From IMG/VR virus record IMGVR_UViG_2606217100_000002: DNA of 9,772 nucleotides; one strand, written 5' to 3'. Below the pieces are notes generated by a model, which was not told the origin of the DNA, made no database searches, and was given only the letters and a program-made list of their open reading frames with translations. Both the position numbers and the translations under genes were made by a program. The stretch comes from a virus. Its lineage: Duplodnaviria > Heunggongvirae > Uroviricota > Caudoviricetes. Positions 268 through 9,772 of this stretch are shown here, piece after piece (positions within the stretch are counted from its first letter, which is position 1; each line of letters begins with the position of its first letter).

Positions 268-300
268 AAGCCCTCGCGTTGAGGGCTTTACTGATTTTTT
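268..300. terminator. intrinsic terminator shared by the convergent grxA and ybjM genes
   Basis: Stem AGCCCTC (269-275) / GAGGGCT (281-287) with 5-nt loop, followed by a T6 run at 295-300; lies between two convergent genes and overlaps the ybjM stop. Confidence 0.6.
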
Positions 301-665
301 CTGTGCTGTGGTTTAAACAAACTACTGATAAATAAGAAACACAGTGCCCCCAGCGCACACCAGAACACCGCGCTTAGTAACCATGCCAGCTCTTGCCAGA
401 ATGAGCGCGTCGGTGAAAAAAACAGCCGCATAATGAGCATTGAACAGGGTGCCGCCAGCATTGCGCCAAATAGAGGTTTCAGGACTTCTCTACGCTGTGA
501 AAAGAAACTGGCAACTGCTCCAGGAAGAATGAAAAATAGCAAGCCGATTTCAGGATGCCCGGCAGCCCGAAAAGCGCCTTTCATGTGCGTCGCCAGAAAA
601 AGGCACACCACAATGAAGAGGACAAAACAGCAGATTGCCCCCGCCCAACGTTGTTTATGTTTCAC
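288..665 (-). CDS. ybjM: inner membrane protein YbjM (function unknown)
   Basis: 125-aa ORF, very hydrophobic with several predicted transmembrane helices; conserved position between grxA and ybjL as in E. coli. Confidence 0.85.
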   Translation of the reverse strand: MKHKQRWAGAICCFVLFIVVCLFLATHMKGAFRAAGHPEIGLLFFILPGAVASFFSQRREVLKPLFGAMLAAPCSMLIMRLFFSPTRSFWQELAWLLSAVFWCALGALCFLFISSLFKPQHRKNQ

Positions 666-934: not shown

Positions 935-2620
935 GTGAATATAAACGTCGCCGAATTGTTAAATGGGAATTACATTCTGTTATTATTTGTGGTCCTCGCG
1001 CTTGGGCTATGTCTCGGAAAGTTACGACTTGGTTCGATCCAACTGGGTAATTCCATTGGCGTTTTAGTCGTATCGCTGTTATTAGGCCAACAACATTTCA
1101 GCATTAACACCGATGCGCTTAATCTTGGCTTTATGCTGTTTATTTTCTGCGTCGGGGTCGAAGCCGGACCGAACTTTTTTTCCATTTTTTTTCGCGATGG
1201 GAAAAATTACCTAATGTTAGCACTGGTGATGGTTGGCAGTGCGCTGGTGATCGCCTTAGGGTTAGGTAAGCTGTTTGGCTGGGATATTGGCCTGACGGCC
1301 GGTATGTTAGCAGGCTCTATGACGTCGACACCGGTTCTGGTCGGTGCTGGCGATACACTGCGTCATTTCGGCATGGAAAGCAGGCAGCTCTCACTGGCAC
1401 TGGATAATCTGAGCCTCGGGTATGCCTTAACCTATTTAATCGGTCTGGTGAGTTTGATTGTTGGTGCGCGTTACTTGCCGAAATTGCAGCATCAGGACTT
1501 ACAGACCAGCGCCCAGCAAATCGCCCGCGAACGTGGCCTGGACACTGATGCCAACCGTAAGGTTTATTTACCGGTGATCCGCGCCTATCGCGTCGGCCCG
1601 GAGCTGGTGGCCTGGACCGACGGCAAAAATCTGCGTGAACTGGGTATTTATCGACAAACCGGCTGCTACATTGAACGTATTCGACGTAACGGGATTCTGG
1701 CAAATCCAGACGGTGATGCCGTGCTACAAATGGGCGATGAAATAGCGTTGGTAGGCTATCCCGACGCCCATGCCCGACTCGATCCCAGCTTCCGTAACGG
1801 TAAAGAAGTTTTCGATCGTGACCTTCTCGACATGCGTATCGTCACTGAAGAAGTGGTCGTTAAAAACCATAACGCTGTAGGTAAACGTCTCGCACAACTG
1901 AAGTTGACCGATCACGGTTGCTTCCTTAACCGCGTCATTCGTAGCCAGATTGAGATGCCGATAGATGACAACGTCGTGCTTAACAAAGGTGACGTTTTAC
2001 AAGTCAGCGGTGATGCCCGTCGCGTAAAAACCATCGCCGATCGCATCGGCTTTATCTCGATTCACAGCCAGGTCACTGACCTGCTGGCATTTTGCGCCTT
2101 CTTTGTTATTGGGCTGATGATCGGGATGATCACCTTCCAGTTCAGCACATTCAGTTTCGGCATGGGGAACGCTGCCGGGTTGTTATTCGCCGGAATTATG
2201 CTGGGCTTTATGCGTGCTAACCACCCGACCTTCGGTTACATTCCGCAAGGTGCATTAAGCATGGTGAAAGAGTTCGGCTTGATGGTGTTTATGGCAGGCG
2301 TTGGTCTGAGCGCCGGTAGCGGTATTAATAACGGCCTGGGCGCGATTGGCGGTCAGATGTTGATTGCCGGATTAATTGTCAGTCTTGTGCCCGTGGTTAT
2401 CTGTTTCTTGTTCGGTGCTTATGTATTGCGAATGAACCGCGCACTGTTGTTCGGCGCAATGATGGGCGCACGCACCTGCGCGCCGGCAATGGAGATCATC
2501 AGTGATACAGCTCGCAGTAACATCCCTGCGCTGGGCTATGCGGGCACCTACGCAATCGCCAACGTCCTGCTGACGCTGGCAGGGACAATCATCGTCATGG
2601 TATGGCCAGGATTAGGATAA
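935..2620 (+). CDS. ybjL: putative transporter YbjL (AAE-family permease with two cytoplasmic RCK_C/TrkA-C-like regulatory domains)
   Basis: 561-aa ORF with GTG start at 935; hydrophobic N- and C-terminal permease halves flanking a soluble central region; sequence recognised as E. coli YbjL. Confidence 0.92.
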
Positions 2621-2855: not shown

Positions 2856-3074
2856 TCAAAGAGAGAGCGCCACCTGTCCTGATTTCATTGGATGCGGCTG
2901 AACCGGATTTGACTCTTTGGGCGTTGCAATCGAACGAACAAAAGTTTCATGGGTAACAAAAGTATGGCTGCAGTTAATGTTCTGGCACTGGTTGTAACGC
3001 TCTTTGGTCAATGAAGATACCTGAAAACTGCTGCGAGTATGGGCGGCACTTCCACACAGTGGGCAAATCATCAT
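2856..3074 (-). CDS. ogr: Ogr/Delta-family zinc-finger late-gene transcriptional activator
   Basis: About 72 aa from ATG at 3074 (GGGAGA RBS 8 nt upstream); C-x2-C ... C-x4-C zinc-binding pattern (CPLCGSAAH ... CQNINCSHTF) resembling P2 Ogr; sits downstream of D as in P2. The tracked ORF extends to a GTG at 3107, which seems less likely. Confidence 0.85.
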   Translation of the reverse strand: MMICPLCGSAAHTRSSFQVSSLTKERYNQCQNINCSHTFVTHETFVRSIATPKESNPVQPHPMKSGQVALSL

Positions 3075-3164
3075 TTTTCGAGTTCTCCCCATTTTTGCTA
3101 AATTCACAATAATGATACCGCATTATTCCATTTTGCAAACTTAAAAGTTCTCCATTGCGAAGAA

Positions 3165-4265
3165 TCATTCCATTTCGAAATCATCAATCCTCACTTCAAG
3201 CTCCAGACTGGTCGTAAAACCATTATCCGGGCTGACGGTATGTGTCAGAGTCGTAATGGTCCATTCCGCATCATCTATCGGCTGTTTAAAGCCACTGACT
3301 TTCACTGGCATTTCCGTGTAGAGATCTGCCCGCCCTTCCGCCAGTTGTAGCGAGAATGACGCAACGCCGCGTTGCAGGCGTTCCCACTGCATTTTTGCCG
3401 CTCGTTCGGCGTTGCTCCGGTTGGCATAAGTGCGATTAAGTACCAGCACGTTTTCATCCGTCCCCACCAGGTAATCGCCCTGCTTCGCTTCCGGCTCTTT
3501 CTTCTGCTTCTTGGTCCTGCGATTACGCTTCACTGTAGTGCTTTCTTTCTTCGCAGGTTCGCGGGTATGCAACCAGCTGGCAATTACGCCCGTGTAGGCT
3601 CCGCGATCCGCCAGGGTAAAGCGGTGACTGTCGCCGTCCTTGCGTGTGATAGTGATCACCGGCAGTGGTTTACCGCTGGCACTTTTACCCTGTCCCTGCC
3701 GGATGAATAACAGATTGCTATTTTTCACCGACGCAATAGCACCGTACTGGCGCGCCAGCCGCATCAGAAAACTGCCGTCACTCTCATTAGTCTGGTCTAT
3801 ATGATCCACGGGTTTATCCGACAGGTCTTTACCCAGTGCCATCTTCAGTTTGTGACGCGCAGCTATTTCCTTCACCACTTCCCCGACCGTGGTCTTGTGC
3901 CACGATTTTTCACGGCGGGTATTCAGCGTTTCCCGAAAATCAGCACTTCGCGCCCGGATGGTCAGGCGGTCCGGTGCGCCAGTGTGTTCAATCTCGTCCA
4001 CCGTGAATGCCCCTTTCGGGAAAAGCGGCTGCCCCTTCCAGCCCAGCGCCAGCGTAATGACCGCACCACGGCGCGGCAGCACGATTTTTCCGTCGGCGTC
4101 GTCCAGCTCCAGATCAAGCTGGTCTGCTTCAAAGCCCCGGTTATCCGTCAGCGTCAGCCCCATCAGGCGGTTGTCCAGCACAGTGGTGATATCCCTGCCT
4201 TCAATACTGATGCTGAATGCCGGAGTTTTGTTACCTTTGTTAAGCAGTTCAGAGCTGAAATTCAC
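3165..4265 (-). CDS. gpD: P2 gpD-like tail protein (late control gene D family)
   Basis: 366-aa ORF immediately upstream of ogr, the gpD position in P2; start overlaps the upstream gene stop in an ATGA arrangement (translational coupling); GC-rich phage-type composition. Confidence 0.8.
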   Translation of the reverse strand: MNFSSELLNKGNKTPAFSISIEGRDITTVLDNRLMGLTLTDNRGFEADQLDLELDDADGKIVLPRRGAVITLALGWKGQPLFPKGAFTVDEIEHTGAPDRLTIRARSADFRETLNTRREKSWHKTTVGEVVKEIAARHKLKMALGKDLSDKPVDHIDQTNESDGSFLMRLARQYGAIASVKNSNLLFIRQGQGKSASGKPLPVITITRKDGDSHRFTLADRGAYTGVIASWLHTREPAKKESTTVKRNRRTKKQKKEPEAKQGDYLVGTDENVLVLNRTYANRSNAERAAKMQWERLQRGVASFSLQLAEGRADLYTEMPVKVSGFKQPIDDAEWTITTLTHTVSPDNGFTTSLELEVRIDDFEME

Positions 4266-4747
4266 GACAGCAGCCCTCCCACCGTTTTACTGATATCGCT
4301 TAATGCAGACGTTGCCGTATCCTGCAGATTATTCAGTTGCGTACTGAGATCACCGAACATATCGGACAGGGATTCATCCACCCGTTTGAGCGACAGGGTG
4401 AACTCAATCCGGCGCGGCATACCGTCGCGGAAAAACTCCGTTTTAGTCAGATTCAGTCCCTCAATCACATACATGCCGTAAATCGTGCCACTGCCTTCAA
4501 TCAGGGGCCATGCTTTTCCCTGTTCTGCCATCTGCTCCAGAGCCAGCAACGACAGCCTGCCGCCCGTTATCTCCGGCATAAGAACACCAGAAAGCGTCAG
4601 CATGTCGTTGTCCGGTCCCAGAAACTGCGTGGACGGACGACGGTTTACCCGGCTGTTTGCCGCATGTCGCCAGCTGCGTTGATACTGCAGTTCCTGATAC
4701 GGAACGGTGCGCAGCATAAACACGTACAATCCCAGCACCATCATCAT
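4262..4747 (-). CDS. gpU: P2 gpU-like tail protein
   Basis: 161-aa ORF between the T remnant and D, matching P2 order T-U-D; ATGA overlaps at both ends (4744-4747 and 4262-4265). Confidence 0.78.
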   Translation of the reverse strand: MMMVLGLYVFMLRTVPYQELQYQRSWRHAANSRVNRRPSTQFLGPDNDMLTLSGVLMPEITGGRLSLLALEQMAEQGKAWPLIEGSGTIYGMYVIEGLNLTKTEFFRDGMPRRIEFTLSLKRVDESLSDMFGDLSTQLNNLQDTATSALSDISKTVGGLLS

Positions 4748-5994
4748 GCGTCGTAACCCCCCTGATCGCTGTAGTTACTCCTGGCTTTTGCCTTCAGCCT
4801 GCGTTCACGTTCATCAAGCTGGCGGGCCACCTCCCGCGCAATATCCTGCGCACTTTGTCCAGGCTGCGTCTGGATGATGATCTGCATCGGTGCCTCAATC
4901 CTGTAAACGGGCGGCACAGTGGCTGCGCGACTCACCATCGCTTCTCCACCTTTCGCGGGAAGTGCCAAAGGGTGCAACGGTGGAAGCTCTGCTGGCGCGG
5001 CAGCAACGCCCATCATTCCGGCAACAACGGCAGCCAGTGCAGCTGTATTTCTCCGGCTGGTCACATTTGCCGGGCCATTAACAATTTCCGGCCCGTTTTC
5101 ACCGACGATGCCAAACTGCCCGCGCGGGATATAGCCGCCGCTGTCATACATCCCCGCAAAGCCATATCCCCATGACGGAAAACCACCCGATGGCATCATC
5201 ACTTTACCGTCTGCATTCACCGTCGCAGTTTGCTGACGCGTCACGCTTTCCGGCAGTTTTGCCTTTGCGGCCTCTTTACTGACAATGCCGAGCTTCTCCA
5301 GCAACCAGGAAACGCCGGATTTCAGGGAGTCCAGCGGATGCATGACCATATTCAGCCCTTCCGCCAGTGCCTCCCCGAATCGTCGCCCCATTGCCGCTGC
5401 GCTCTGCAGTTCGGCAGAGGTCGACTTAACGGGCGTCAGCAGATCAGTAAACCAGCCCCACAGCGCCTGTACTTTGTCGCCAATCCACTGAAACACAGGC
5501 TTAAGTGGTTCGAATGCAGCACTGATGGGACCTGCCGCCGCTTTGAATCCTTCCACCACGCCACCGATAAATGCGGTGATGGGTTGCCAGTATTTCCAGA
5601 CAACCAGCGCCACGCCCGCCAGTGCAGTAACCACAAGACCTATCGGACTGAGCAGAGCACCTACCGCACCTGCTGCAACACGCCCGATCTCTGCAGTTGC
5701 GCTCATGACGTAATGCGGCAGTTTCTCTTTTGCTACCTCATTAATCGGTACACATGGCAGACAATGAATCTGTGCCAGAAAACCATCTACCAACGTTGAA
5801 TCTTCAGTCAGATCGGTAAGCAGCCAGATTTCTGGTGCGGTTAATAAATGAGGTTGAGCTGGGTTCAGCTTGTTCCGCAGAATCTGCACATTCATGCCCG
5901 CACGTTCTGCCAGTTGCACCAGATTGTGGCGCAGTGCGAATGCACGACAGGCTTCATCAAAATGTGGATGTTTGGAAACTTGGTAATCAAACAT
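4744..5994 (-). CDS. chimeric ORF: N-terminal ~100 aa of a 186 CII-like regulator fused in frame to the C-terminal ~300 aa of a tail tape-measure protein (gpT remnant)
   Basis: From ATG at 5994 (GAGGTG RBS upstream) the first ~100 aa ([19 protein letters not shown] ... [25 protein letters not shown]) resemble phage 186 CII family regulators; the remainder is Gly/Ala-rich hydrophobic sequence typical of the C-terminal part of P2-type tape-measure proteins and is followed by U and D. The tracked ORF start at 6048 would overlap the upstream gene. Confidence 0.62.
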
Positions 5995-6026
5995 GGTCGA
6001 CACCTCTGATGTATCCCAAAATGGAA

Positions 6027-6248
6027 CTAGTTGAATACAACATTGCAATCAGTAAGTGCATCAACGGTAAGAGCAGCAAGGTTGATCATTACCTTTTCTC
6101 TTTTCTTGTCTTTACGAAGACGATGCCGAGGAATGCGACCATCCGCCAACATATCGTTGATTGTGTCGATTGAAAGACCAGTAAGTTCGCTATAACGCTC
6201 GATTGTGACGTGTGGCGTATTCAGAGTTATTGAAATGTTAGGGGTCAT
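6027..6248 (-). CDS. Apl/Cox-like small DNA-binding protein (excisionase / lytic-switch regulator)
   Basis: 73-aa ORF from ATG at 6248 (AGGAG 10 nt upstream); first gene of the leftward operon, divergent from cI and followed by the cII-like gene (the apl position in 186); helix-turn-helix-like segment [25 protein letters not shown]. The tracked start at 6365 would overlap cI. Confidence 0.55.
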
Positions 6249-6298
6249 GATGCAACATCTCCTATTGGCTTGTGGTGAGCCTGTAGTAATCGTGACAA

Positions 6299-6314
6299 GT
6301 ACCCAATTGGGTAC
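6299..6314. promoter_or_regulatory. perfect 16-bp palindromic operator GTACCCAATTGGGTAC in the lysis/lysogeny switch
   Basis: Perfect inverted repeat in the cI-apl intergenic region, located at about +1 to +16 of the predicted leftward early promoter and 30 bp upstream of the cI start. Confidence 0.5.
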
Positions 6315-6321
6315 AAAACTG

Positions 6322-6350
6322 ATACTAGGATCGCAAAAGAGATATGTCAA
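6322..6350 (-). promoter_or_regulatory. early (lytic, pR/Pe-like) sigma-70 promoter driving apl/cox and the cII fusion
   Basis: On the minus strand TTGACA (plus coordinates 6345-6350, overlapping the cI start codon), a 17-nt spacer, then TAGTAT (6322-6327); predicted start near 6314 at the edge of the palindrome. Confidence 0.5.
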
Positions 6351-6940
6351 CATCAAAGTACCCAAGTGAGATCAAAATAAATCCCAATAAAGGTGGTAAG
6401 GCTGCGATTGAGCGATTAGTCGAAGCCTATGGCTTTACGACACGACAGGCTTTAGCTGATCACTTGGAAGTATCAAAAAGCACACTAGCGAACAGGTATT
6501 TGCGGGATACATTTCCTGCTGACTGGATAATCCAATGTGCTCTTGAAACAGGAACCTCCCTCAAATGGTTAACTACCGGACAAGGCCTTAAGCAAAGCTC
6601 GCTGACAGCAGCTACAGAAGAGCTTGTTAAGTTTCGCCTTGCCGCAGGCAAAATGATTGAAGACGGTTCATATGTCTTCGATTCATCATTTCTTCCTGCA
6701 AACCTTTCATCACCAATTGTTGTTCAGGATGGACTCGTCACATACATTTGTGATCAAAAATTTTCTGAAGTACTTGATGGAAACTGGTTAATCAATATCG
6801 ACGGAACCTATTCCATTCGAAAAATCACAAGGCTTCCTAAAGGAATGATTAAAATTACAACAGCAGAGAATAGCTTTGAATGTGCATTTTCTGATATTGA
6901 AGTGGTTGCTTGTATAAGAAGTACAATAGTCTCGAATTAA
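6344..6940 (+). CDS. cI: phage CI-type immunity repressor (186 CI-like: N-terminal HTH plus C-terminal oligomerisation domain)
   Basis: 198-aa ORF; N-terminal helix-turn-helix region (GFTTRQALADHLEVSKSTLANRYL) typical of the phage CI repressor family; divergent from the apl/cox-like gene and upstream of int as in P2/186. Confidence 0.8.
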   Translation: MSTSKYPSEIKINPNKGGKAAIERLVEAYGFTTRQALADHLEVSKSTLANRYLRDTFPADWIIQCALETGTSLKWLTTGQGLKQSSLTAATEELVKFRLAAGKMIEDGSYVFDSSFLPANLSSPIVVQDGLVTYICDQKFSEVLDGNWLINIDGTYSIRKITRLPKGMIKITTAENSFECAFSDIEVVACIRSTIVSN

Positions 6941-6960
6941 TATAGTAAAAGGATTTTAAA

Positions 6961-8637
6961 ATGAATTCATTTGCCATCGTTATACTCTTATTAGCATTTC
7001 TCGCCCCTGTTCTAGCTGTAATATTATTTAAACAAAGTAAAAAACACAAAGCGGCTATAGATAACCTGACAGCTAACAACATAGCCCTTTCTAACCAACT
7101 GATTGAAAATCAAGAAAAACTAGCACAGACCGTACGAGAATTATCAGAGCTTGAAGGGCGAGCAGCACCATTGTGGCAATACGAAGAATTGCACAGCGCA
7201 GTAATGGATGCAGAGAATAAGATAAAAAATGCGGACTCAATAGCCAAGCAAAAAATAGATGAAGCCCAAATTAAGGCGGCTAAAACAGTAAACGAAGCAA
7301 ATTATCAAGCTCAGATGACAATAAGCAACGCTAATAGCGAAGCTATAGCAATCACCAAAGACGCTCGCGATGCACGCCTGAAAGCCAAAGAACGTCTTGA
7401 TAATGCTAATAATAAAGCAAATGAGCTAATCTCAAATGCTAATGACAATGCAGTAAAAATTATTTCTGATGCAGAAGAAAGAGCAAAGGAGATTGCTGGT
7501 TCAGCATATGAAGCTAAAGAGTTTGCAGAAAAATATGAAGCAGTTGCAAAATCAATGAAAAATAAAATTGAAGGTTATGGTGATGAATGGATCATCCCTA
7601 ACCGTAGTGTACTTGATGAGCTGGCAGAAAATTATGAATTTACAGATGCAGGCAAGGAATTACAAAAAGCCAGAGAGTTAACCAAATCATTAATAAAAAC
7701 TAATAAAGCTGCTTCGTGTGATTATGTTGAGCAAAACAGGCGTAATACTGCCATAAACTTTGTTTTGGATGCCTTCAATGGAAGAGTTGACAGTATTTTA
7801 TCAAAAGTCAAACACAACAATTTTGGAAAACTTTCCCAAGAAATAAAAGATGCATTTCAACTAGTAAATTACAATGGCTCTGCCTTTAGGTCCGCAAAAA
7901 TAAGTGACATCTATCTTCAGGCAAGACTCAACGAGCTAAAATGGGGTGTAGCAGTTAATGAAATTATGCTCGAAGAAAAAGAAGAGCAAAGAAGGATTAA
8001 AGAACAGCTTCGTGAAGAGGAAAGAGCTCGTAGAGAATATGAAAAAGCGATAAAAGAAGCTGAAAAAGAAGAAAAAGCTATTCAGCAAGCTATAAATAAA
8101 GCAACGAAAGAACTTATGCTTGCAAATGAAGAACAACGCTTAGCTTTAGAGCAAAAAATAGCTGAACTACAGTTAAAATATGAAGAAGCTGAAGCTAAAA
8201 ATCAACGAGCTATTTCTATGGCTCAACAAACCAGATCAGGCTACGTCTATATCATTAGTAATATTGGTTCATTTGGCGAAGATGTATATAAAATTGGAAT
8301 GACACGCCGCCTTGAACCACTTGATCGTGTTCGTGAACTCGGAGATGCTAGTGTTCCTTTTTCGTTCGATGTTCATGCGATGATTTATAGTGATGATGCA
8401 CCATCATTAGAAAACCATCTGCATAAAGTTTTCAACGAAAAGCAGGTCAATAAAATTAACTCACGAAAAGAGTTTTTTAACGTAAATTTAAAAGAAATCA
8501 AATCAGTTATTGAAGACATGAACATCAACGCCCACTGGACAATGTTTGCAGAGGCGAAAGAATATAGAGAGTCTCTAGCTATTGAGCAGGAGCGCAAAGC
8601 AGCCACTTCCGCCAACGATGAACTACATGTTGCTTAG
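6961..8637 (+). CDS. cargo (moron) protein: N-terminal transmembrane anchor, extended coiled coils, DUF4041-like middle region and C-terminal T5orf172/GIY-YIG-type nuclease domain; candidate anti-phage defence effector
   Basis: 558-aa ORF with AAAGGA RBS 8 nt upstream of ATG, 20 bp after the cI stop. Residues 5-23 hydrophobic (FAIVILLLAFLAPVLAVILF) followed by KQSKKHK. Two long K/E/A-rich coiled-coil stretches. C-terminus GYVYIISN...YKIGMTRR...RVRELGDASVPFSFDVHAMIYSDDAPSLENHLHKVF...RKEFFNV fits the GIY-(10-11)-YIG, Arg, Glu pattern of T5orf172/GIY-YIG nucleases. Markedly AT-rich relative to the flanking prophage genes. Confidence 0.6.
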   Translation: MNSFAIVILLLAFLAPVLAVILFKQSKKHKAAIDNLTANNIALSNQLIENQEKLAQTVRELSELEGRAAPLWQYEELHSAVMDAENKIKNADSIAKQKIDEAQIKAAKTVNEANYQAQMTISNANSEAIAITKDARDARLKAKERLDNANNKANELISNANDNAVKIISDAEERAKEIAGSAYEAKEFAEKYEAVAKSMKNKIEGYGDEWIIPNRSVLDELAENYEFTDAGKELQKARELTKSLIKTNKAASCDYVEQNRRNTAINFVLDAFNGRVDSILSKVKHNNFGKLSQEIKDAFQLVNYNGSAFRSAKISDIYLQARLNELKWGVAVNEIMLEEKEEQRRIKEQLREEERARREYEKAIKEAEKEEKAIQQAINKATKELMLANEEQRLALEQKIAELQLKYEEAEAKNQRAISMAQQTRSGYVYIISNIGSFGEDVYKIGMTRRLEPLDRVRELGDASVPFSFDVHAMIYSDDAPSLENHLHKVFNEKQVNKINSRKEFFNVNLKEIKSVIEDMNINAHWTMFAEAKEYRESLAIEQERKAATSANDELHVA

Positions 8638-8694
8638 CAATGTATGTTTCATAGTAATCACACATTGATTACTGGTTACATATACAGTTAAATT

Positions 8695-8719
8695 TAGCCC
8701 TCTGATATGAGGGCTTTTT
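8695..8719 (+). terminator. intrinsic terminator after the cargo gene, abutting the int start codon
   Basis: Stem AGCCCTC (8696-8702) / GAGGGCT (8709-8715), 6-nt loop, then a T-run to 8719; int ATG at 8720. The GAGGG of the 3' stem half doubles as the only candidate Shine-Dalgarno for int. Confidence 0.55.
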
Positions 8720-9772
8720 ATGGCAGTACGAAAACTAACCACAGGGAAATGGCTTTGCGAATGTTACCCCGCCGGACGAAGTGGGCGTCGTGTGCGTAAA
8801 CAATTCGCTACCAAAGGCGAAGCACTGGCTTTTGAGCGCCACACGATGGAAGAAACCGAAGCAAAGCCCTGGCTGGGTGAATCAGTGGATCGTCGAACAC
8901 TGAAAGACGTGGTTGAGCTATGGTTCAAACTACATGGTAAATCTCTGACAGCTGGGCAGCATGTCTATGACAAATTGCTGTTGATGGTTGACGCTCTGGG
9001 CAATCCTCTTGCAACCGATCTCACCTCTAAAATGTTTGCCCACTATCGAGATAAACGCCTGACAGGCGAGATCTACTTCAGCGAGAAATGGAAGAAAGGA
9101 GCAAGCCCGGTCACCATTAACCTGGAGCAAAGCTATCTAAGTAGTGTTTTTAGCGAACTATCCCGTCTGGGCGAATGGTCGTATCCGAACCCACTGGAGA
9201 ACATGCGAAAATTCACCATCGCAGAAAAAGAGATGGCATGGCTTACCCATGAGCAGATTGTTGAATTGCTGGCTGATTGCAAACGTCAGGACCCAATTCT
9301 GGCACTGGTAGTTAAGATATGCTTAAGCACAGGCGCACGCTGGCGTGAAGCCGTAAATCTTACCCGCTCACAGGTGACCAAATACCGAATTACCTTTGTC
9401 AGAACGAAGGGGAAGAAAAACAGAAGCATCCCTATCAGTAAAGAGCTTTACGAAGAGATCATGGCGCTTGATGGGTTCAATTTCTTCACAGACTGCTATT
9501 TTCAATTTTTATCCGTGATGGAAAAAACGTCTATCGTGCTCCCTCGCGGTCAACTCACACACGTTCTGCGCCATACGTTTGCGGCGCACTTCATGATGTC
9601 GGGTGGAAACATTCTGGCCTTACAAAAAATTCTCGGACACCACGATATAAAAATGACTATGCGTTACGCACATCTGGCACCGGATCATCTAGAAACGGCG
9701 CTCCGTTTCAATCCTCTGGCAACGCTACCAAGTGGCGACAAAGTGGCGGCAGCGGTTGGCATTACCCCGTAA
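8720..9772 (+). CDS. int: P2-type tyrosine integrase (site-specific recombinase)
   Basis: 350-aa ORF; N-terminus MAVRKL.. and overall sequence resemble P2 Int; catalytic-region motifs LSTGARWREA (Arg), HVLRHTFAAHF (His-x-x-Arg) and MTMRYAHLAP (Tyr nucleophile); last gene before the presumed attachment site. Confidence 0.93.
   Translation: MAVRKLTTGKWLCECYPAGRSGRRVRKQFATKGEALAFERHTMEETEAKPWLGESVDRRTLKDVVELWFKLHGKSLTAGQHVYDKLLLMVDALGNPLATDLTSKMFAHYRDKRLTGEIYFSEKWKKGASPVTINLEQSYLSSVFSELSRLGEWSYPNPLENMRKFTIAEKEMAWLTHEQIVELLADCKRQDPILALVVKICLSTGARWREAVNLTRSQVTKYRITFVRTKGKKNRSIPISKELYEEIMALDGFNFFTDCYFQFLSVMEKTSIVLPRGQLTHVLRHTFAAHFMMSGGNILALQKILGHHDIKMTMRYAHLAPDHLETALRFNPLATLPSGDKVAAAVGITP
9733..9754 (+). 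repeat. 22-bp direct repeat, right copy (TGGCGACAAAGTGGCGGCAGCG), inside the 3' end of int
   Basis: 21 of 22 identity with 2834-2855 in the same orientation; encodes int residues ..GDKVAAA..; 18 nt before the int stop. Confidence 0.5.

Follow-up and report, generated by a model that had tools for sequence, protein, structure and literature searches.

A hairpin that resembles a transcription terminator and at the same time contains the Shine-Dalgarno (SD) sequence of a phage integrase gene raises the question of which transcripts it acts on. The locus lies in a 9,772-nucleotide (nt) stretch of DNA, called the window throughout, from the IMG/VR virus record IMGVR_UViG_2606217100_000002 (Caudoviricetes). 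The window is a deleted prophage remnant; its right part (5662-9772) shares 99.9% identity with Escherichia phage vB_EcoM-813R9, a member of the Peduoviridae that has a switch of the 186 type and is referred to below as the intact phage. The gene concerned, int (8720-9772, plus strand), encodes a 350-amino-acid (aa) tyrosine integrase of the P2/186 family, as judged from its Pfam domains (PF24624 and PF00589) and its homologues, and the ATG at 8720 is backed by homologue conservation of the sequence beginning ATGGCAGTACGAAAACT. Upstream of int lie the repressor gene cI and a cargo gene. A sequence-only reading of the window had taken the hairpin for a compact insulator, created or retained when the cargo gene was inserted, that stops read-through from this highly expressed gene and sequesters the int ribosome-binding site (RBS), so that integrase stays very low in lysogens. 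Comparison with related loci retains part of this reading and alters the rest. In the model that we favor, with modest confidence, transcripts that read through from upstream would be terminated and would have the int SD hidden, while int's own transcripts would lack the anti-SD arm of the hairpin.

The hairpin is formed on the plus strand by a 5' arm AGCCCTC (8696-8702), which is the anti-SD arm, a 6-nt loop TGATAT (8703-8708) and a 3' arm GAGGGCT (8709-8715). These assignments rest on sequence and fold, complemented by a terminator scan for the 5' arm and by anti-SD duplex energy for the 3' arm. Five of the seven base pairs (bp) of the stem are G-C, and the first T of the five-T run TTTTT (8715-8719) pairs with A8696. 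The run, which is also part of the scanned terminator pattern and is present in about 23 related loci, would serve both as the U-tract of a terminator and as the spacer between SD and ATG; it abuts the int ATG with a gap of 0 nt, instead of ending one nucleotide before it as had been stated. The G+C-rich stem-loop is followed immediately by the U-tract (TTTTT, then AT), as in an intrinsic terminator. Folding of 8690-8722 yields a free energy of -13.3 kcal/mol and a z-score of -4.1, with one of 200 shuffled sequences equally stable, and the same hairpin is kept in the minimum free energy structure of a longer, 123-nt context. The SD was chosen by anti-SD duplex energies. The best anti-SD partner at -18 to -4 of int is TGAGGG (-6.1 kcal/mol, 6 nt from the ATG), and GAGGG (8709-8713), the sole good SD candidate before the ATG, lies entirely within the 3' arm. 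A GC stem with a T run and a single SD inside its 3' half are therefore present as the sequence-only reading described them. An Rfam scan of 8400-8900 (E ≤ 10) placed no family at its gathering threshold; the best match was RyhB at 28.5 bits against a threshold of 55, and the other matches, also below threshold, were terminator-like small RNAs mostly over the same hairpin region. The terminator pattern scan of the window includes the int hairpin, but such patterns occur there at near chance frequency (15 found versus 11.3 ± 3.2 in shuffles), and the case that the hairpin is not a chance structure therefore rests on its conservation.

Conservation was assessed at 77 fetched genome loci encoding Int homologues (designated L followed by a number), of which 73 were usable. 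One common plan extends over the ~85 bp before the int ATG in 41 of the 73. It comprises, in order, ATGTWTG-N12/13-CAWACAT; a hexamer TTGACA, TTGACC or TTTACA; CTGT-N8-ACAG with an A/T-rich N8; T(A/T)AAAT; and a hairpin whose end is 0-7 nt from the ATG. The sequence features as such, together with their conservation and geometry, are directly observed, and the loci belong to Escherichia, Klebsiella, Raoultella, Citrobacter, Enterobacter, Serratia, Yersinia, Rahnella, Pantoea, Brenneria and other genera. In E. coli, about 1084 of 5426 complete genomes, BL21 included, match the window from ~8640 or ~8658 through the 5' end of int, and only 164 of those ~1084 also share the SNIPE-like cargo gene. 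What stands upstream of the module varies: the SNIPE-like gene in the window (6961-8637), GmrSD plus HEPN in an E. coli locus (L082), and a 63-aa open reading frame (ORF) in BL21 (L081). In the Klebsiella phage 4LV2017 (L002), int is 96.7% identical, the similarity ends in the hairpin region and unrelated genes lie upstream. Since the same int-proximal module is found behind many different cargos, the hairpin was not made by the insertion of this cargo, as the sequence-only reading had proposed. It is part of what precedes int, namely the promoter-proximal end of a putative int control module in a large 186-like prophage lineage. Judged from the same comparison, the cI-int interval behaves as a defense hotspot, bounded by cI on one side and by the conserved int module on the other. 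A cI-int defense hotspot has already been described for K139-like, P2-related Vibrio phages (PMC9122126). The module is present in only 15 of 50,697 deposited phage records, no classical model phage among them, and the single record inspected at the module, that of 4LV2017, does not annotate it.

The hairpin is conserved as a structure rather than as a sequence. A z-score below -2 is found for 32 of the 35 distinct module leaders (median -5.1), whereas none of the equivalent 35-nt segments from 29 distinct module-less int homologues, which served as the control, reaches z < -2 (median +0.3). At least 10 different stem sequences occur, each of which pairs the SD through its 3' arm: AGCCCTC/GAGGGCT, ATGCTCTCC/GGAGGGCAT, AAACTCTCCTAAA/TTTAGGAGAGTTT, GTAGCCC/GGGCTAC, ACCCCCTT/AAGGGGGT, CACATTCTC/GAGAATGTG, CCTCCAT/ATGGAGG, ACAGTCCTC/GGGGGCTGT, ACCCCT/AGGGGT and others. 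The anti-SD segment is maintained through compensatory change, as in SD-sequestering leaders, and this comparison supports the proposal that the int RBS is sequestered. In a MAFFT alignment of 29 leaders the different stems fall out of register. Because the stems cannot be aligned column by column, selection on the hairpin was judged from per-sequence z-scores, the control set and the list of independent stems. On this evidence the hairpin is, as far as comparative analysis can tell, under selection as an RNA structure. An inverted repeat beside a promoter could also be a DNA operator for a dimeric protein such as Int, Apl/Cox or CI, and phage regulators often bind such palindromes. This explanation is hardly credible here, as the stems are wholly different between lineages yet always complement the SD. 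In addition, several stems (L003, L011, L028 and L074) contain T.G pairs, valid only in plus-strand RNA, which are A.C mismatches on the other strand and for which a symmetric DNA site has no reason, and the loop varies from 3 to ~15 nt across the loci.

The terminator character of the hairpin has a narrower distribution. Only the window's lineage (Int identity ~78% or more) has a T run behind the stem. A terminator survey of 43 loci found ~23 with the T run only, 11 with an upstream terminator only, one with both (a weak match, L013) and 8 with neither. Save for the weak pattern match in L013, the interval from the upstream gene to the module is free of canonical terminators in the loci with the T run. 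Canonical GC-stem-plus-T terminators lie ~30-100 nt upstream of the module, adjoining the CII-type half-sites, only in lineages without the T run (L031, L033, L036, L038, L045, L026, L028, L030, L032, L037 and L078). The T-run hairpin and the upstream terminator are almost mutually exclusive, so that there is generally one terminator per junction, a property of an intrinsic terminator. In the window the int hairpin lies 58 nt after the cargo stop, and there is no other terminator between the cI-cargo operon and int. Because SD pairing is kept where the T run is missing and a separate terminator stands upstream, SD pairing is the general function, and in the window's lineage the same hairpin appears to have taken over termination of the cI-cargo operon as well. 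The claim that the hairpin stops read-through from the cargo gene thus finds support in the T run and in the lack of any other cI-cargo/int terminator in the window's lineage, with the limitation that the terminator part is lineage-specific and the SD pairing general; that the cargo gene is highly expressed is indicated by nothing in the sequence. One may ask whether the hairpin is a mere terminator of the cargo gene or of the cI operon, with an SD overlap that is an accident of compaction and without effect on translation. Terminator-like hairpins are indeed common, as the count of 15 in the window attests, and G-rich SDs readily pair with C-rich arms. Persistence of the SD pairing at loci that have no T run and possess a separate upstream terminator, together with comparable structure in 0 of the 29 control leaders, renders this explanation very improbable.

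Between the cargo stop and the hairpin lies a conserved putative promoter of the sigma-70 type, which the sequence-only reading overlooked together with the LexA box in its spacer and the CII-type half-sites upstream of it. In the window the predicted -35 hexamer is TTGATT (8665-8670, plus strand), which is TTGACA or TTGACC in most relatives, and the predicted -10 hexamer is TTAAAT (8688-8693, plus strand), which is TAAAAT in many relatives and directly follows the CAG of the LexA box (consensus ...ATACAGT.AAAT). The spacer is filled by a LexA (SOS) box, TACTGGTTACATATACAGTT (8670-8689), with the core CTGG-N8-ACAG at 8672-8687. The box was scored with a position weight matrix (PWM) for which 19 known LexA sites of E. 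coli were taken from the literature; on it the known sites range from 15.2 to 28.1 bits. The 16-mer CTGGTTACATATACAG (8672-8687), which has a single core mismatch to CTGT-N8-ACAG, scores 23.6 bits, and the next best site of the window 9.7. All 34 distinct LexA boxes of relatives from many genera score at least 15.5 bits, and the motif is present in at least 120 viral contigs. The arrangement of -35, LexA box and -10 recurs at fixed spacing, always directly before int, at 41 genome loci and on at least 89 viral contigs. In the BL21 copy a promoter scan calls TTGACA-17-AAAAAT with 10 of 12 matches. These findings bear on the possibility that int has no promoter of its own, in which case every int mRNA would be subject to the hairpin as a terminator and RBS trap, and Int would be made by leakage only. 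The hairpin, the T run and the SD within the stem are real, and the -35/-10 match of the window is mediocre and was not called by the scan. Nevertheless, we regard this possibility as improbable in view of the fixed promoter arrangement at so many loci, the BL21 promoter call, and a conservation across genera and cargos that would be unexpected for non-functional spacer DNA.

The int promoter is predicted to be repressed by LexA and hence to belong to the SOS regulon. Scanning of the intact phage with the same PWM pointed to only two places, the int site and a tandem pair upstream of an operon with a DinI-like ('SOS induction modulator') gene. The tandem boxes are located at 2506-2540 of the intact phage locus (L001) and at 1146-1180 of the BL21 remnant (L081), just upstream of a small hypothetical gene and the DinI-like gene; this operon is deleted from the window. 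It looks like the counterpart of 186 p95-tum, homology being assumed. In phage 186, p95-tum is under LexA control and constitutes the only known SOS input (PMC7708051), and the 186 int-cI-apl-cII region contains no LexA site by the same PWM. A literature search found no report that int genes of the P2/186 family have a LexA box or a promoter of their own, and no chromatin immunoprecipitation or expression data on LexA binding or DNA-damage induction.

The position of the promoter determines which RNAs can form the hairpin. From the position of the -10 hexamer, int transcription is predicted to start at 8699-8702 (~8700, plus strand), inside the 5' arm. Counting 13 nt from the CAG of the box gives the predicted +1, which for each hairpin class lies in the 3' part of the 5' arm or at its end; in every class the 5' (anti-SD) arm is situated between the -10 and ~+3 of the promoter. 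Transcripts begun at the predicted site would be missing most or all of this arm, so that the hairpin would affect read-through RNA but not int's own mRNA. A partition-function model quantifies the difference. In the read-through context the median probability that the SD 6-mer is unpaired is 0.04, with 38 of 43 loci below 0.2; for RNA beginning at the predicted start the median is 0.40, and only 1 of 43 remains below 0.2. The corresponding values for the window are 0.17 and 0.49. Of the insulator proposal, the comparison supports insulation of int from upstream transcription and sequestration of its RBS, but not the notion that the hairpin governs all int expression. Start sites at nucleotide resolution were sought for BL21, where the BL21(DE3) transcriptome paper used tiling arrays only.

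The outer element of the module resembles the binding site of CII, the activator of lysogeny establishment. The window itself provides an internal reference for the half-site motif: a pE-type CII site, ATGTTTG-N13-CAAACAT, lies over the cII start codon at 5968-5994, the only exact match in the window (0.00 expected by chance), and both in sequence type and in position it corresponds to the CII site of 186 pE, which the phage 186 record annotates as GATGTTTG-N13-CAAACAT. Abutting the int -35 is a second, CII-type inverted repeat, ATGTATG-N12-CACACAT (8640-8665; half-sites 8640-8646 and 8659-8665), with one mismatch. Its spacing is 19 bp from center to center, versus 20 bp in the pE type; N12 and N13 are equally common among the relatives. 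Nearly every module-bearing locus has such a site 76-85 nt ahead of int, and its half-sites are more conserved (0.79-0.90) than its spacer (0.47) over 69 distinct sequences. Typical module-bearing loci have two CII-type sites within ~4 kb upstream of int, the pE site and the int-proximal one, versus a single site at ~-1050 in typical module-less loci; some loci have only one or neither within 4 kb. In the Rahnella/Ewingella loci L027, L029, L030, L032, L034 and L037 the second CII-type site is ATGTATG-N13-CATACAA, 425-1320 nt upstream of int. Some of these sites lie too near int for a full cI gene to fit, and the switch region of this lineage may be differently organized.

In 186 the CII half-sites are located at -38 and -58 of the pE start (Hao et al., PMC6593788). 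Given a predicted +1 at 8700, the half-site centers of the window (8662 and 8643) are at -38 and -57, and those of the BL21 copy at -37/-38 and -56/-57 of its predicted start. The int promoter resembles 186 pE in having 7-bp inverted half-sites of the ATGTTTG type ~20 bp apart, at nearly the same distances from its predicted start. Unlike pE, it has a near-consensus -35 in the relatives, an added LexA box and either N12 or N13 spacing. An alternative placement, in which a pE-like promoter would have its -10 inside the center of the LexA box, was rejected, as the published -38/-58 geometry fits the recA-like -10.

The same geometry bears on where int's own transcripts begin. If they started at or before 8695, the hairpin would be a constitutive translational damper, an attenuator or a 5' stabilizer in int mRNA itself. 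5'-terminal hairpins are known to stabilize mRNAs, and the hairpin is retained even where a terminator stands upstream. Moreover, the start site is only predicted, and a shift of 2-4 nt upstream restores the modeled SD pairing. An upstream start would require initiation just 0-2 nt after the -10, since the conserved -35 and a spacer of 16-17 nt put the end of the -10 2 nt before the stem in the window, or the -10 inside the 5' arm in the BL21 class. In the T-run lineage, a full hairpin in int's own mRNA would terminate int after ~25 nt, and the pE-like geometry fits a start at ~8700. We consider an upstream start unlikely, although a good deal less so than the other alternatives discussed above.

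Several observations weigh against the favored model. The modeled opening of the SD is partial, and it is gone if the start lies 2-4 nt further upstream; no purine is present at the ideal +1, as 8699-8702 reads C, C, T, C. The window's promoter, TTGATT/TTAAAT, matches at 8 of 12 positions; it is weaker than those of the relatives and escaped the scan, one half of its LexA box reads CTGG, and the LexA PWM depends on literature sites. The CII-type site of the window combines its one mismatch with N12 spacing, and Shearwin and Egan are said to have found in 2000 that a deviation of ±1 bp in spacing weakens CII binding. A CII target would be most persuasive as a weak promoter in need of CII next to an intact cII gene; here the relatives have TTGACA, a near-consensus -35 unlike that of the activator-dependent pE, and cII is truncated and fused in the window, so that any CII input is probably defunct there. 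Finally, at 8 loci the T run is missing and no upstream terminator was detected, and the compared loci are phylogenetically related, so that the counts are not counts of independent events.

With these points in mind, the favored model may be set out as follows; termination, binding of LexA and CII, the start site and differential translation enter it as predictions from sequence. Polymerase coming from the lysogenic cI-cargo operon would transcribe both arms, and the RNA would fold. Most of these read-through transcripts would end at the T run, and those that continue would have the int SD paired, so that the lysogenic operon would not feed int. The promoter of int itself would be repressed by LexA, would probably be helped by CII, and would start at ~8700 within the anti-SD arm. 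The resulting int mRNA would be unable to form the stem, and its SD would be more accessible. Int would accordingly be made in SOS induction, alongside the DinI-like operon of the intact phage, which is likewise preceded by SOS boxes, and probably also in the CII-driven establishment of lysogeny, and would be off in the stable lysogen.

The gene content of the window sets the frame for this model. The host genes ybjM (288-665, minus strand) and ybjL (935-2620, plus strand) are followed by the prophage genes ogr (2856-3107), gpD (3165-4265) and gpU (4262-4747), all on the minus strand. The next ORF, of 434 aa (4744-6048, minus strand), has the N-terminus of cII fused to other sequence: its CII domain is confined to the N-terminal part (Pfam residues 28-129), and likeness to the intact phage, in which cII is intact, begins at 5662. 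The CII of this window is probably non-functional, while cI, the defense gene and int are intact. The switch side continues with cox/apl on the minus strand, followed by cI (6344-6940), the cargo gene (6961-8637) and int (8720-9772), all on the plus strand. The first gene of the lysogenic operon, cI, encodes a 186-type immunity repressor (Pfam PF07022 and PF16452; labeled repressor cI in ON470620). The cargo gene starts 21 nt past the cI stop and, according to Pfam, encodes a DUF4041 and T5orf172/GIY-YIG protein of the SNIPE-type anti-phage nuclease family (PMC13190303), which RefSeq names 'SNIPE associated domain-containing protein' or 'DUF4041 domain-containing protein'. A perfect palindrome, GTACCCAATTGGGTAC (6299-6314), adjoins a strong leftward promoter match, TTGACA-17-TAGTAT (6322-6350 region, minus strand); judged by sequence and position, the two resemble the CI operator and pR of the switch. 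A second hairpin with a near-identical stem is present at 268-288 (AAGCCCTC-GCGT-TGAGGGCTT; arms also given as AAGCCCTC...GAGGGCTT). Its loop differs, and its place just past the stop of the minus-strand gene ybjM is outside the prophage. That it might be a repeat copy of the int hairpin was considered, but it is probably an unrelated host hairpin.

Parts of this arrangement have precedents in other systems. In the insertion sequences (IS) IS10 and IS50, as Davis, Simons and Kleckner in 1985 and Krebs and Reznikoff in 1986 are said to have described, read-through RNA reportedly folds onto the RBS because the resident promoter starts in the stem. Here too the recombinase gene of a mobile element would be shielded from upstream transcription by termination and SD pairing, with the anti-SD arm preceding the start predicted for the gene itself. 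IS200 protects its transposase from impinging transcription with a left-end terminator and an SD-sequestering stem (PMC4513863). The int module differs from these elements in that it serves a phage tyrosine integrase rather than a transposase, that one hairpin would do both jobs in the window's lineage, and that the incoming transcription is that of the element's own lysogenic operon with its defense gene. Furthermore, the resident promoter is predicted to be regulated (by LexA and probably CII), and no antisense RNA is evident. As a terminator, the hairpin is ordinary in its G+C-rich 7-bp stem, its 6-nt loop, its U-tract of five (TTTTTAT) and its position 58 nt past the upstream stop. Unlike a plain intrinsic terminator, it has a U-tract that is also the SD-to-AUG spacer and a stem that overlaps the promoter discriminator and the +1 region, and distant homologues keep the stem without the T run.

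The predicted regulation also has counterparts. The E. coli recA promoter, TTGATA-CTGTATGAGCATACAG-TATAAT, has a LexA box in its spacer, and the int promoter resembles it in placing a CTGT-N8-ACAG box between the -35 and the -10. The integron integrase gene intI is under LexA control (PMC3108266); int would likewise be a tyrosine recombinase gene under SOS control, here that of a P2/186-family prophage integrase, unlike intI. In phage 186 nothing separates cI from int, whose stop and start overlap (TAATG), and int is co-transcribed with cI; here the module and a cargo stand between the two genes. Phage 186 has been described with a single CII-activated promoter, and in lambda, CII turns on int from pI (PMC7708051). 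The int module would resemble lambda pI functionally, the CII proteins of lambda and 186 being unrelated.

The broader significance that we attach to these findings is tentative, and we hold it with less assurance than the model itself. In a large 186-like lineage that about one fifth of complete E. coli genomes harbor, int may have been uncoupled from the cI operon by an ~85-bp switch with three inputs, namely LexA repression, CII activation and a promoter-embedded anti-SD/terminator hairpin that sorts RNAs by their origin. The insulation thus provided may let the cI-int gap serve as a defense hotspot that is expressed in the lysogen without integrase. As a natural part, such a module would be of use to synthetic biology, as it would combine a terminator, an RBS lock and an inducible promoter in ~60 bp. 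If the proposal is true, a temperate phage can carry constitutively expressed defense cargo in its lysogenic operon, immediately upstream of int, without producing integrase in the lysogen, and the synthesis of Int would be tied to the SOS signal and probably also to the activator of lysogeny establishment. A second SOS-controlled unit and a second CII-type target would then be added to the 186 switch paradigm, in which one of each has been described.

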